Below are positions 56,697 through 63,123 of a DNA stretch of 64,000 nt, piece by piece; the stretch's first letter is position 1, and the number at the start of each line of letters is the position of its first letter. The notes under the pieces were generated by a model. The model ran no database searches and was not told the origin of the DNA. It saw only the letters and a program-made list of their open reading frames with translations. The position numbers and the translations under genes are program-made. The DNA lies in contig WFTC01000013.1 of assembly GCA_015485665.1 (NCBI GenBank), forward strand, positions 3,559 through 67,558. Reading direction: 5' to 3'. This stretch comes from Candidatus Altimarinota bacterium. GTDB taxonomy: Bacteria; Patescibacteriota; Gracilibacteria; UBA1369; 2-02-FULL-48-14.

Positions 56697-56800
56697 GTAC
56701 AACGTCCGAGACTATGAGAAGTTTTGCCGCGGTACAATGTGCGCGTTAGCGCTTACCGCGGCAAAATTTGGGAGAGCGAATGGAGCGTAGCGGAGTGAGT
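56697..56800 (-). repeat. attC-like site B (right arm missing)
   Basis: GTACAAC, a 13-bp TTTTGCCGCGGTA hairpin and a GA-rich arm that breaks off; no closing GTT box. Confidence 0.6.
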
Positions 56801-56887
56801 TCAAAAAATATTTTTCGTTTTCATTAATCAGATAGGCTTTCCTCATTAATTATAAATTTCATTTTTCAAAAATTTATTTTTTTGTAA

Positions 56888-57955
56888 TTACCAATCAGAA
56901 CGAATACCATATGCTTCTTTATATCTTTTTTTTAAATCAAAATACCTTTCTTTATAATTATTCCAGAACATTTCGTAATCTTTTTTTGAAATTAAATTTT
57001 TATACATATATTCCATTTGATCTTTTAATTTTTCTTGAGAATTATAATAATCCAGCCTCCTTTTATTCTCATAAGTTACCTCGCACAACTCTCTTACTCT
57101 ATTTTTTTTACTACCTTTGTCTTTGTACATCCCATTATATGGTGGAGGTACCCTAAACTTATTACTTACAACAACCTTAAGATTATTTTTTAATATAATT
57201 TTTCTTGAGAAAATAAGTTCGCCATATTTTGCTAAAAATTTGTATAAAATATCTCTTATTACATTAAAAAATTCTTCACTTTCGTTACCAATAGAAATAT
57301 AGCCAATATCATTATGAATGTAATTTCCTTCAAAATTTACATCGCCAAAAAGAAAAGCATGAGAAAGGGCATATTTGATAGCTCTTGATAAGTCAATTTC
57401 ATCAATCCTCCTTTTTTCTTTAGAAAGTGTTCTAAATTCTGTTTTATTAAATTCTTTAGGGTAAATAAAACGAGCGAGATGATACTTTGCTTTTAACATT
57501 TCGTCCGATCTGTCCTCAGATAAAAAAGCAGAAACTATATCTATTTCTTTTTTTGTAATTTTTAAAATATCTTGCGATACTACAATTTCAATTAAAGAAA
57601 ATGTTTTTGTAAAAAAACGATCAAAAAAATTCCTTAAAAAATCAATTTTGATTGAGTTATTTGCAAGCATTATCTTTTTTTCCTCTTCGTTGTGAGCATT
57701 CCAAAGTAATGCCATATTAATGGCACTCACAATAAAAAGTCTTGGTCTTTTTTTCATGACTCTTGCAATATCTACTGCTGGTAAAAAATGAGTAATAAAT
57801 CTTGCATTTAATTTTGAATCTAAATCATAGATATTTTTTCTCTTGGATGAAATCTTAAACTCCGGTTCATTAAACCCCACAAAAACATCCCTTCCATTTA
57901 TTAGTTCCGGATTAATGTTTTTTAATTTACTTCTATCTAAAACTAATTGTTTCAT
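56888..57955 (-). CDS. hypothetical protein (very AT-rich cassette gene)
   Basis: 355-aa ORF between sites B and C. Confidence 0.7.
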   Translation of the reverse strand: MKQLVLDRSKLKNINPELINGRDVFVGFNEPEFKISSKRKNIYDLDSKLNARFITHFLPAVDIARVMKKRPRLFIVSAINMALLWNAHNEEEKKIMLANNSIKIDFLRNFFDRFFTKTFSLIEIVVSQDILKITKKEIDIVSAFLSEDRSDEMLKAKYHLARFIYPKEFNKTEFRTLSKEKRRIDEIDLSRAIKYALSHAFLFGDVNFEGNYIHNDIGYISIGNESEEFFNVIRDILYKFLAKYGELIFSRKIILKNNLKVVVSNKFRVPPPYNGMYKDKGSKKNRVRELCEVTYENKRRLDYYNSQEKLKDQMEYMYKNLISKKDYEMFWNNYKERYFDLKKRYKEAYGIRSDW

Positions 57956-58092
57956 ATTCTTATGTAATTATTTAAAACTTTATAAATAATTCGGTTTCTG
58001 TAGCGAAGCGGAAGAAAACACAACATTGTCCCCCTCTTTTTTTAGAAAGCATATAATCATTTTAACTCTTAAACAAATATTTTTTGAATTGC

Positions 58093-58187
58093 GTATAACG
58101 TTTGTGTATATGCGACGTTGCGACCAACGGGAGCAATTTGGGTAGAGAAGTCTGCAAGACTTCGTAACCTCATATACTGTGTTAGGC
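58093..58187 (-). repeat. attC-like site C
   Basis: GTATAAC-GTTTGT-GTATATG...CATATAC-TGT-GTTAGGC with two inner hairpins; 58166-58225 is identical to 63232-63291. Confidence 0.8.
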
Positions 58188-58248
58188 GAGGGTGAGCGAG
58201 GTACGAGCGAAAGTGCAACGTCCCCTTGAGTTGAGAATTTGTCTATCA

Positions 58249-59406
58249 TTATTCCTTAACGAAATAACTGTCGCTAACTTCTTTCCTCATTTTCCCCTCT
58301 GCAAATCTATTGTATCTAAATGATTCTAACAGTTTCGGAGTTTTGCCCATTATCAATTCTGCCATGAGCTTACCAATCATAGGAAAGAGTTTGAAGCCTG
58401 TCCCACTAAAACCAGTAGCACAATAATAATTTGGTACCTCATCGATTTCGCTAAGGATAGTGTAATAGTCTGGAGTAACATCTATACAAGAGTTGAAACC
58501 GCCAATCGAAGATGATTTTTTCAACTCGGGAATCCTCTCTGATATATCTTCTAAATACTCTGTGACAACATCATGAGAGAAATCGAAATCGTGCGTATCT
58601 GGGTCAATCTCTCTATTAAGATCAAGAGCTATAGAACTTACATCAATGAATGATTCGTGAGGAATTATGTAAAAATGATTAACAAAATCAGCAATGGCTA
58701 TTAGGTGTCTGTTAGGGCCAAGTGGCGCTCTATAAAAAGCATTATCAATGTTGATAGCTTTTACATCAAGCTTGATATCGAAAAATTTATTGATTTTGTT
58801 TGAAAACGCAGCGGTGGCATTAAAAACTTTGTCTGCAAGAAATGTTTCATTGTTGGTTGAAACAATAAATTGACTGCCTTTTCTTTGAATATTGGTTACT
58901 TCTGTGTTTTCAAAGATATCAACACCTGACTTTTTGCATAATTCCGCCAGATAATTAGCTATCGTTGCAGGATTGATATATCCTGCCTCTTGATCGAGAC
59001 AGGCGCAAACATTTTCCGTCTTTAAAAATGGATGAACTTTTTGCAACTCTTCTCCTTCAAGATATTTCGCCTTAATGCCGAGTGAATTTAATAATTCAAC
59101 ATTTTCCTTTATGTTGTTTGCATTATTAATACTGTCAATAACTAAGAGACCTTTTGTTTCATATGTCAGATCTGGAGACTCTCGGCATAATTTCTTGATA
59201 TACTTTAAACTATCAAATGCCATTTGGGCCATTTCTTTAGAATTGTAAAAAGTTCTAACAAAACCACAACATTGCCCAGTTTGACCAGAACCTACATATT
59301 TTTTATCCACAAGACAAACATTTTTAACTCAAGACTGTGATAAGTTGAGTGCTGTTGAAATTCCTGTTGATCCTGCTCCAATAATTAAAATCGAAACTGT
59401 CTTCAT
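58249..59406 (-). pseudogene. FAD-dependent oxidoreductase (DAO/sarcosine oxidase family) with in-frame TGA at codon 26
   Basis: MKTVSILIIGAGSTGISTALNLSQS*VKNVCLVDKK is in frame with ORF 58249-59310; TPD and GFSGTGFK motifs. Confidence 0.8.
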
Positions 59407-61632: not shown

Positions 61633-61662
61633 ATTTCAAAAGGTGAGATGACACAATATATC

Positions 61663-61760
61663 GGCTAACGTTTCAGTACATGCGATGTTTTGTGGAACGT
61701 AGTGGAGCAAAATATGGGAGAGCGAAGTGCAACGAGTGAACCGCATATACTGTGTTAGGC
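61663..61760 (-). repeat. attC-like site F
   Basis: GGCTAAC..CAGTACATGCG...CGCATATACTG..GTTAGGC; near-identical to site G. Confidence 0.8.
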
Positions 61761-61799
61761 GATGTGCTCAAAACAATTACCATAAATATTTGAACAATT

Positions 61800-62594
61800 T
61801 TATACTGCTCCCGTGCCGTAAATCTTTTTTTCTTCCGTTAGCATATCAGTACACGTGATTTGTCTGCCGAATGGTTTAGTGTCATCTGTTACCATATCTC
61901 TCAAATTATCAACAGTCAAAGGAGTTTCTGATGTGAATACTTTTGGCGGCCAGCTATCTTTTTGAACCAACGAATGTGTCGGATCGAAAACGTACTTTCC
62001 GTTCTCAAGCACCAGAAACGTATGTCTGTCGGCAAGCGGGTCATCAACATTCTCTTTGAATGCTCCGACGACTATAGAAGATTTGATACCTAATTTTTCC
62101 AAGACATGGTGAGCGAGTAGGGAGTATTCTGCACAAACAGCAAGCCCCTTACTTTCTGAAAGAGGTTTTACGCAAACTTTTTTACCTTCCGTAGTTTGAG
62201 TCGCATAATCACTAAAACTTTGATTTCTTTTAAACTCTGAGCCAGGATCTCCAAGCAAGTTTCTGACAATTCTTGCCGTTCTCCAACATAAATGAAGTAA
62301 TCTTCTTTTATCTTCATCTAGATCATAGGCTTGCTGTTCCAGCTTGCAGACAGCTTCGAAAAGCTTTTCAAGTTTTTCTGGTGTCACTACTTTTAACTTT
62401 TCAGCAAAGGCCAAAAAATTACATTTTAAATAAAAATCACCGTCTGTAAAACTGTGCCCGATTAACACATCTTCGCCTTCAGCTACATGTGGAATCAGAA
62501 ATTCTTCATTATACGCTGTTAAGGATTCCATTTTGGCGCGGTTGATCACCGCAATCTTTTCTTGATTTGGTTTGTATTCGGGGACTTCAGACAT
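61800..62594 (-). CDS. transglutaminase-like (Cys-His-Asp) protein
   Basis: AVCAEYSLLAH..LGIKS..RHTFLV..VFDPT. Confidence 0.6.
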   Translation of the reverse strand: MSEVPEYKPNQEKIAVINRAKMESLTAYNEEFLIPHVAEGEDVLIGHSFTDGDFYLKCNFLAFAEKLKVVTPEKLEKLFEAVCKLEQQAYDLDEDKRRLLHLCWRTARIVRNLLGDPGSEFKRNQSFSDYATQTTEGKKVCVKPLSESKGLAVCAEYSLLAHHVLEKLGIKSSIVVGAFKENVDDPLADRHTFLVLENGKYVFDPTHSLVQKDSWPPKVFTSETPLTVDNLRDMVTDDTKPFGRQITCTDMLTEEKKIYGTGAV

Positions 62595-62607
62595 AAAATT
62601 GTTCAAA

Positions 62608-63123
62608 TTATAAAGTAAAAATTGTTTTGGGCTTTGGTAAATAGGAAAGTATAGAACTCAATGAATCTTCAATACTTCCTGAAACATCAATATTGTTGCC
62701 ATAATCAAACCGTGAAACGAGCGAATGAACAGCCCATGTCGCACCTTCGCCATGAGTTTTGTTGCGTTCACTATCTCTTTTGATACAAAGTTCTAATGGT
62801 GCTTTTAAGGTAAAAATGTGGTGCGGAAAAGGAAGGTTTTGGATGAGGTGCTCGATAACTTCTTTGTGATAAAAGCAAGCGTCAAAAATGATTATTTTAC
62901 CATTTTGTAATTGTTCTTTGACTTCTGGTAATACACTTTCGCTTGCTTTGATAAAGTTTTTTGCGGGAATACACCTCTCTTTCTCGTCAATTTTATCTAA
63001 GTCAAGATTTTCGAGCACCTCATCTATTGCAATTAGTTTTGCGTCGAGTTTTTTAGCGAGTTTCTCGGATAATGTGGATTTTCCACTACCTAGTGGACCA
63101 CGAATGATAATAAAGTAGCTCAT
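62608..63123 (-). CDS. P-loop nucleotide kinase-like (AAA_33/AAA_18-type) protein
   Basis: IRGPLGSGKSTL, IIFD and CIKRDSER motifs. Confidence 0.8.
   Translation of the reverse strand: MSYFIIIRGPLGSGKSTLSEKLAKKLDAKLIAIDEVLENLDLDKIDEKERCIPAKNFIKASESVLPEVKEQLQNGKIIIFDACFYHKEVIEHLIQNLPFPHHIFTLKAPLELCIKRDSERNKTHGEGATWAVHSLVSRFDYGNNIDVSGSIEDSLSSILSYLPKPKTIFTL

Follow-up and report, generated by a model that had tools for sequence, protein, structure and literature searches.

Why do the gene cassettes of an integron-like array carry inverted repeats that extend past the 7-bp R boxes of their attC recombination sites? The question is raised by a stretch of 64,000 nucleotides from Candidatus Altimarinota bacterium (GenBank assembly GCA_015485665.1, contig WFTC01000013.1, positions 3,559 to 67,558), hereafter called the window, which is part of a 69-kb contig (C13) of a 0.86-Mb genome (37% G+C, 23 contigs, 100% complete as judged by marker genes). 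Its array occupies positions 56160-63310, where all genes lie on the minus strand and are kept apart by related elements of 95-350 nt; each of these elements, read on the minus strand, runs from an RYYYAAC-type box through an imperfect palindrome to a GTTRRRY-type box. An earlier note on this DNA, made from the letters alone, had described five inverted-repeat pairs around the cargo genes and asked whether they stabilise the site or record how cassettes are made. We consider it probable, although well short of certain, that the two repeats of a pair together make up an extension at the base of the attC hairpin, which would be assembled only in the excised cassette.

All five pairs are present: 59791-59813 versus 60111-60133 (21/23), 60296-60308 versus 61646-61658 (13/13), 58231-58244 versus 59430-59443 (13/14), 56800-56813 versus 58075-58088 (14/14) and 61788-61803 versus 62593-62608 (16/16). 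The 13/13 pair sits within a 24-nt pair, 60285-60308 versus 61646-61669, that is 83% complementary with the R boxes included, and both this longer pair and 60111-60133/59791-59813 continue directly from the R boxes. Read along the minus strand, the order is R'-GAAA-arm a ... gene ... arm b-CATC-R'', and the repeats prolong the R'/R'' boxes outward. The claim that the pairs bracket cassettes holds for four of the five, which are cassette ends, but the 61788/62593 pair encloses only the second gene of a two-gene unit. This unit (61761-63156; a kinase gene and a 265-aa open reading frame, ORF) consists of two cassettes fused through loss of the first cassette's attC site, and the kinase ORF now ends within the former leader of the next cassette; in another genome (G041), a homologous kinase cassette stands alone with 12-nt arms at both ends. 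The 16-mer is therefore the inner block of the next cassette's repeat. The arms are generally unique to their cassette, as had been proposed, but the 14-mer of the 56800/58075 pair also stands at the start of contig C4 and at one place on C19 in this genome, as well as at the start of cassettes in other genomes. Some arms overlap start or stop codons, as the earlier note had stated (Table 1). The cassette at 56320-56658, which holds a tRNA-binding-domain ORF, has no arm pair.

Given a genome of 37% G+C, in which loose settings returned 131 weak inverted-repeat pairs in 8 kb, such repeats might be chance matches in AT-rich DNA, or else the terminal inverted repeats of a transposon family. We scored the best near-perfect ungapped block (+1 for a match, -2 for a mismatch) between the first 70 nt of a unit and its last 160 nt, the latter taken as the reverse complement. 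Among the first 25 cassettes, which came from this genome and four relatives and were located with an early finder plus three sites added by hand, the block score was at least 10 in 20 and at least 13 in 12, and when starts were shuffled against ends 20000 times, the observed block sum was reached in no case. For 651 ordinary genes in this genome, with 70 nt of upstream and 160 nt of downstream sequence compared, block scores had a median of 7 and never exceeded 12; they were at least 10 in 30/651 and at least 13 in 0/651. The earlier note had named equally common repeats around ordinary genes of this AT-rich genome as the observation that would speak against it, and the opposite was found.

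A motif common to several sites of the window also occurs in 13 other genomes of the same order. In the arrays of these relatives, R' of one site exactly complements the R'' box of the site that follows and, past a spacer, 10-19 perfectly complementary and cassette-specific bases come next. The first attC finders, which combined regular expressions with alignment, missed many sites (at locus L117, 5 compared with 14 by the model) and were replaced by a covariance model, R1, built from 25 aligned sites. In these sites, 95.9% of the cells of the fold are paired, compared with 74.9% in shuffles and 22-45% in slid controls; two-sided changes occur in 93 cells compared with 25 in shuffles, and double changes in 12 of 19 pairs, including 9 of the 11 pairs of the L helix. 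Sites of the R1 type were found in 101 of the 151 genomes searched in the order (66/91 genera) and in 30 of the 151 genomes of a phylum-wide sample. Over 29 loci, R1 gave 223 matches, of which 207 were used after removal of 6 with partial model coverage and 10 with E > 0.0004; AAC/.TT stands at the expected offsets in 195/207. Successive matches gave 166 cassette intervals, and 12 were removed (3 exceeded 4 kb, 8 had irregular boundaries and 1 was too short); 164 intervals, from 25 genomes, are distinct. As expected of integron cassettes, which are mostly promoterless, hold one ORF and share an orientation, the median cassette is 560 nt long with a median ORF of 156 aa, the largest ORF is on the top strand in 102/121, and homologous cassettes were found in different genomes. 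When R' of site n was compared with the complement of R'' of site n+1, 7 of 7 positions agreed in 105/164, 6 of 7 in 30 and fewer in 29. Together with the covariation of the sites and a divergent tyrosine recombinase that stands beside arrays in seven genomes, this rule of succession bears out the reading of these units as integron cassettes.

In the enlarged set, the cognate block score was at least 10 in 119/164 cassettes, compared with 1612 of 26732 non-cognate pairs of starts and ends (73% versus 6%; non-cognate median 7). The corresponding counts were 91/164 versus 273/26732 for scores of at least 12, and 31/164 versus 17/26732 for scores of at least 16. A similar proportion was obtained for nine genomes from other lineages and orders of the phylum (26/36 cassettes with a block of at least 10, versus 85/1260 non-cognate pairs), after eight intervals and 4 matches had been dropped. 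The classic control comprised three class 1 integrons from plasmids, together with 80 loci from named genomes that had been retrieved with IntI1. A strict scan of the class 1 loci found no attC, and a looser scan with an exact R'/R'' chain rule was used instead; its finder is strand-blind, so that in the 129 distinct candidate intervals it yielded, real cassettes are counted twice and some intervals are false. In this class-1-type set, the median block was 7 and the maximum 12, only 2/129 reached at least 10, and the contiguous match past the R box was 0-6 nt. Class-1-type arrays are G+C-rich; ordinary genes and non-cognate pairs served as the controls for composition. Complementarity past the 7-bp R boxes, as the earlier note had it, is real, cassette-specific and general in related arrays, and it is absent in the class-1-type integrons.

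Chance is refuted by these figures. The transposon version fares no better, since the blocks keep a fixed offset from the R boxes, and the ends of a transposon would be alike between copies, whereas here they are different in every cassette. A tyrosine recombinase is also the only recombinase found beside the arrays, transposases having been screened solely through a Pfam scan of the window's ORFs. We regard either origin as having practically no probability.

The geometry of the arms is regular. A first block with a score of at least 9 within 30 nt of R' is present in 121 cassettes and is 9-21 nt long; it begins 4 nt past R' in 99/121 and 4 nt ahead of R'' in 78/121. The spacer is GAAA in 91/164 and its counterpart, read as the reverse complement, is GATG in 80/164, although both counts may be inflated by the inclusion of the flanks in the model. 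A second block of at least 10 lies further inward in 60/121, compared with 26/595 when foreign ends were used as the control. Some second blocks, 10-11 nt long, occupy non-collinear places in leader and trailer and may be due to chance. Between arm b and R'', 28/121 cassettes carry a GC-rich insert of 15-66 nt.

We propose the following sequence of events. Each cassette is an integron-type unit that opens with the final six bases of R' and closes with its own attC site, which places the crossover between G and TT. In the chromosome, the gene lies between the two halves, and the flank past an attC site belongs to the next cassette; the long stem therefore cannot form locally, and an attC site in the array has a foreign flank and a weak R helix. 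Excision would join the ends: the halves would then flank the attC site, the bottom strand could fold, and an R-box helix of ~20-30 bp would lie below the L box, with the gene as the loop. Such a stem would stabilise the recombinogenic form of the free cassette and would favour the excised product and its re-insertion, and its splitting would spare the chromosome and the array long local palindromes. The intermediate would be a circular single strand, and the stem would serve recombination catalysed by this integrase. The long stem may also make up for what site and enzyme lack, namely extrahelical bases in the former and the IntI-specific domain in the latter.

We computed minimum free energies in silico, with DNA parameters, for 156 cassettes in which the cassette end and attC site were joined to the cassette's own start as in an excised circle. 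On the bottom strand, the median was -49.5 kcal/mol for the reconstituted junction, -36.5 kcal/mol in the array context and -37.1 kcal/mol with a foreign start. The cognate junction was predicted to be lower than the array context in 147/156, and the bottom strand lower than the top strand in 149/156. When the cognate R box and spacer were kept and the arm was swapped, the median was -41.0 kcal/mol; the arm thus adds a median of -8.4 kcal/mol (lower in 137/156), compared with -3.7 kcal/mol for the cognate R box alone. In example folds, the arm, the spacer (with one unpaired pair) and the R box form a single continuous helix, and in one example with a GC-rich insert, a three-way junction is predicted.

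The same complementarity, strand bias and energies would also apply if the arms paired across the gene within single-stranded array DNA, looping out the cassette, bringing the flanking attC sites together and promoting or gating excision. R' of site n partners R'' of site n+1 exactly, and a closing helix including the R box would be possible across a median of 560 nt. However, such a helix would take R'(n) and R''(n+1) from their own hairpins, so that neither flanking attC site would keep a paired R box, and pairing over 300-5000 nt would compete poorly with local structure. The data fit pairing in the circle equally well. We consider the looping out of array DNA unlikely.

A position at which the arms differ may be a G.T wobble when one strand folds and a true mismatch when the other does, and the distribution of such positions can indicate which strand folds. 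At spacer position 4, A stands opposite G in 82 of 87 collinear cassettes, which makes T.G when the bottom strand folds and A.C when the top strand does. At position 3, A faces T in 62/87, a mismatch whichever strand folds, and C faces T in 14, a bottom-strand wobble. Of the mismatches within the arms, 17 are wobbles solely on the bottom strand, 1 is a wobble solely on the top strand and 5 are mismatched on both. The bottom strand is the one described in PMC5027507 as used in integron recombination. This bias, an indirect form of evidence, points to selection on folded bottom-strand DNA rather than on mRNA, which carries the less favourable sequence because the genes are on the top strand (the largest ORF in 102/121). 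The suggestion of the earlier note that the repeats stabilise a folded single strand is thus backed by the predicted energies and by the wobble bias confined to the bottom strand.

This bias bears directly on a role in RNA, in which the two ends of a cistron, 5' and 3', would pair within the array transcript to serve its processing, its stability or the control of translation. Such a role might be expected from the close bracketing of ORFs by the arms (arm b starts a median of 3 nt past the stop codon) and from the overlap of some arms with start or stop codons. The mRNA, however, corresponds to the top strand, on which the spacer would contain A.A and A.C, wobbles within the arms number 1 compared with 17 on the bottom strand, and predicted folds are the less stable in 149/156. 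The arms are, moreover, anchored to the R boxes and not to the ORF. We therefore consider a function in the transcript very improbable.

The arms also appear to be under constraint. In 15 homologous cassette pairs, those with 70-90% identity keep their arms, with 3 changes compared with ~27 expected from the divergence of the cassette bodies. One of the arm changes appears, compensated, in both arms; two kinase cassettes likewise differ by compensated change in their R boxes; and two of the 15 pairs show a single uncompensated mismatch. Because they are conserved, with compensatory change between homologous cassettes, the arms are not a mere relic.

This result has to be set against the idea that the repeats are a footprint of cassette genesis with no later function, in which the 3' end of a gene beside R'' was copied in inverted orientation behind R', for example by fold-back or template switching at the hairpin. 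The blocks are perfect or nearly so and yet unrelated between cassettes, which templated copying would explain more easily than point mutation. Collinear blocks are seen in many long-armed cassettes, where the entire leader mirrors the entire trailer as far as the start and stop codons. Arm b is overlapped by the stop codon in 30/100 cassettes and arm a by the start codon in 3/100, and where one arm alone extends at least 6 nt into coding sequence, the 3'-end arm does so in 17 cases and the 5' arm in 1. This last asymmetry, however, is also expected from short trailers and longer leaders. The spacer is not a copy, GAAA standing opposite CATC with two fixed mismatches; the arms are far more conserved than the cargo, with one difference compensated in both; and the 17:1 bias toward bottom-strand wobbles implies ongoing selection for pairing. 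A footprint without function therefore seems improbable to us, at about the level of looping out in the array, although copying at genesis and a later function are compatible.

Several points weigh against a split stem that is assembled in the excised cassette. A block of at least 10 is absent from 45/164 cassettes, so that either the arms are not indispensable or the armless cassettes are decayed or fused. In the 28/121 cassettes with an insert, the stem is discontinuous and a three-way junction would be needed, which one fold predicts. The integrase is without the domain that classic IntI needs for a folded attC site, and recombination of a single-stranded hairpin is our assumption. The 15 homologous pairs are among the 164 cassettes, which are thus not fully independent, and the 4-nt flanks included in R1 may have inflated the spacer frequencies, although the arms lie outside the model. 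The energies are computed minima, and the case as a whole is built on sequence and predicted folds, with no circle or recombination event observed. The public run that holds this DNA consists of assembled contigs that are broken at every attC site, and circle junctions cannot show there.

The features of the window's array are collected in Table 1. Six R1 matches were obtained in the window, between 56693 and 63257. In a comparison with Rfam, no family matched the attC-like sites of the window, and two tRNAs were the only matches.

Table 1. Recombination sites, arms and associated elements of the cassette array, in order along the minus strand of the window
Feature	Position	Strand	Remarks
'H' element, GC-rich, directly upstream of R'' of site G	63254-63291	-	Direct-repeat family D1; also at 58188-58230 and 56263-56305
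attC site G, first of the array; R'' 63253-63247, R' 63163-63157	63157-63253	-	R1 63153-63257, 84.5 bits
GAAA spacer and 12-nt arm a (63141-63152), kinase cassette	63141-63156	-	Homologous lone cassette in G041
Arm b remnant, 8 nt, kinase cassette	62625-62632	-	A remnant because the cassette's own attC was lost
Start-side arm of the fifth pair, 16/16	62593-62608	.	Overlaps start codon of 265-aa ORF, just past kinase stop
End-side arm of the fifth pair	61788-61803	.	Overlaps stop codon of 265-aa ORF
Extra 10/10 block, outer to the fifth pair	62620-62629 vs 61769-61778		Read from sequence
attC site E; R'' 61760-61754, R' 61669-61663	61663-61760	-	R1, 87.7 bits
Spacer and arm a, cassette 2 (two ORFs, one C39-like peptidase)	61646-61662	-	Block 14; Pfam
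Arm b and spacer, cassette 2; overlaps TGA stop	60292-60308	-	Inverted repeat I9
attC site D, long variable loop	60127-60291	-	R1 60123-60295, 67.4 bits
GAAA spacer and arm a, cassette 3 (88-aa ORF)	60111-60126	-	Inverted repeat I3; block 12
Arm b and spacer, cassette 3	59798-59813	-	Inverted repeat I3
attC site C; R'' 59797-59791, R' 59453-59447	59447-59797	-	Partial R1 match 59444-59559
GAAA spacer and arm a, cassette 4 (FAD-dependent oxidoreductase)	59430-59446	-	Block 11
Arm b, cassette 4; 43-nt H element 58188-58230 between arm b and R''	58231-58244	-	'Inserted 39 nt' in survey
attC site B; R'' 58187-58181, R' 58099-58093	58093-58187	-	R1 58089-58191, 75.1 bits
GCAA spacer and arm a, cassette 5 (355-aa ORF, no known family)	58075-58092	-	Block 14
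Arm b, cassette 5; abuts attC without R''/L'' half	56800-56813	-	
attC site A, 5'-truncated, R' 56703-56697	56697-56799	-	Weak R1 match 56693-56820, 28.2 bits
Degenerate final attC-like remnant and H element 56263-56305	56160-56305	-	Family D1; missed by R1; closes the armless tRNA-binding-domain cassette

According to the Pfam scan of the window's ORFs, the cargo consists of an AAA-type kinase, the 265-aa ORF without known family, a 248-aa ORF together with the C39-like peptidase, the 88-aa ORF, the oxidoreductase, the 355-aa ORF and a small tRNA-binding-domain protein. A DNA-alkylation-repair gene borders the array on one side and response-regulator genes on the other. Further array pieces of the same kind were found in this genome on contigs C9, C18 and C4.

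Several side observations concern individual sites and cassettes. The variable loop of site C holds a tRNA-Thr(GGT) gene (59552-59627, minus strand) with a 19-bp closing stem (59520-59538/59761-59779); this is a second copy, the other being on contig C19. The GC-rich element is conserved over ~40-66 nt and is predicted to fold by itself, and kindred motifs occur within attC sites and in some leaders. One family of cassettes with different cargo has a long homologous leader that opens with TTCAAAAAATATTT or a near variant (window 57995-58092; contig C4, 1-170; loci L024, L029, L123, L128, L114 and L133). Its members have a second conserved block in common, and the two copies of this genome contain a GC-rich element. 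As TTCAAAAAATATTT is common to several cassettes, that arm is not strictly cassette-specific. At loci L146, L147 and L150 (genomes G220 and G317), the base before the crossover is A instead of G (ATT... opposite ...AAC), which again gives a wobble on the bottom strand only.

The ORF of the oxidoreductase cassette (58249-59406) contains a single in-frame TGA at 59329-59331 on the minus strand, which aligns with a glycine conserved in two solved homologues. This TGA prompted us to consider an alternative code (table 25), which was rejected in favour of the standard code because table 11 ORFs of at least 150 aa already account for 92% of the genome, and frames come to overlap once TGA is taken as a sense codon. 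The codon is either a nonsense mutation or the mark of a cassette from a lineage that reads TGA as glycine. The depth of read contigs over cassette 5 (56794-58174) was 8.6-11.2 in one run, compared with ~20 for the adjacent cassettes, and bases 1-35 of contig C4 comprise the R' box, spacer and arm found in cassette 5, followed by different genes; the depth dip and the start of C4 are hints of presence/absence variation in the population. One contig that joins 56820 to 58136, skipping cassette 5, was not counted as evidence, because its shorter side has 31 letters and the joint lies within repeated attC sequence.

The arms bear on the creation of cassettes and on the recognition of a non-conserved, folded site. 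They lie outside the accepted limits of attC sites and are measurable in about three-quarters of the 164 cassettes; the extension was seen in one order (25 genomes) and also in nine genomes from elsewhere in the phylum, and it is tied to integrases without the domain held to define IntI. As a design principle, a long palindrome would be split in the chromosome and assembled in the free cassette only. The directional overlap of the arms with the 3' ends of genes suggests a concrete hypothesis for cassette genesis. As a tentative and rather doubtful generalization, these arrays may represent a distinct and widespread class of integron in bacteria with ultra-small genomes, in which the folded site would be recognised through a cassette-specific split stem and a fixed bottom-strand wobble instead of through extrahelical bases that the IntI-specific domain reads, and in which arm a would have been copied at the cassette's birth from the 3' end of the gene, with the attC hairpin as the place of templated synthesis. 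If this is true, the arms would be the first sequence-level record of the making of gene cassettes. The open-access papers and preprints searched yielded no account of integrons in these bacteria, nor of complementarity past the R boxes.

Compared with known systems, the enzyme is the first point of difference. The tyrosine recombinase that adjoins the array piece on C18 has 271 aa (table 11), with Phage_int_SAM_4 and Phage_integrase domains, and is 33% identical to IntI1 over 94% of its length; orthologues with 42-51% identity stand, also divergent, beside arrays in six other genomes. Its domains place it near the integron integrases and Xer-type tyrosine recombinases, but it differs from IntI1 in lacking the insertion of ~40 residues near patch III: in the three array-adjacent proteins aligned, the IntI-specific domain is missing, leaving a 40-column gap relative to IntI1 before the region of the second catalytic arginine. 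Its score against TIGR02249 is 195.8 bits (cut-off 265), in two stretches, and its best family is NF040815 (220.9 bits, cut-off 220). The insertion is presented as defining IntI and as needed for activity in 10.1101/2022.02.06.479319 and in work cited by PMC4792948. Clusters of attC sites lacking an integron integrase are termed CALIN in the IntegronFinder definition given in 10.1101/2022.02.28.482270. The window's array is like them in having at least two attC sites with no tyrosine recombinase on its contig, but unlike them in that the same genome holds a short integrase beside the array piece on C18; standard finders that require the IntI domain would presumably call such elements integrase-less clusters only. 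The terminal inverted repeats of transposons and of miniature inverted-repeat transposable elements (MITEs) are alike between copies, and the arms are not.

The closest comparison is with the classic attC sites, which carry extrahelical bases; these bases and the IntI insertion are the features by which classic integrons recognise structure. In the L box of the 25 aligned sites, no such bases were found: 11 stacked pairs, apart from one gap column, have 94.8% of their cells paired. The asymmetry of these sites lies elsewhere, in a central spacer of 4 nt versus 1 nt, an extra internal hairpin and the outer GAAA/CATC spacer. As outlined in PMC5027507, a classic attC site is an imperfect palindrome, R''-L''...L'-R', with conserved AAC/GTT, and crossover at G|TT hands the final six bases of R' to the cassette that follows, whose start thereby complements its own R''. 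The sites described here share the R''/L''/L'/R' palindromes with AAC...GTT, and the succession of R'(n) and R''(n+1) was measured in both. They are unlike classic sites in the extra internal hairpin, in the frequent GC-rich insert outside R'' and in the reach of the complementarity, which in the class-1-type cassettes ends 0-6 nt past the R box, whereas here 9-21 bp, and often a second block, come after a conserved 4-nt spacer that has fixed mismatches. Judged by its sequence, the array is an integron cassette array in layout and logic, but one that departs from the classic form in the IntI insertion and in the extrahelical bases.

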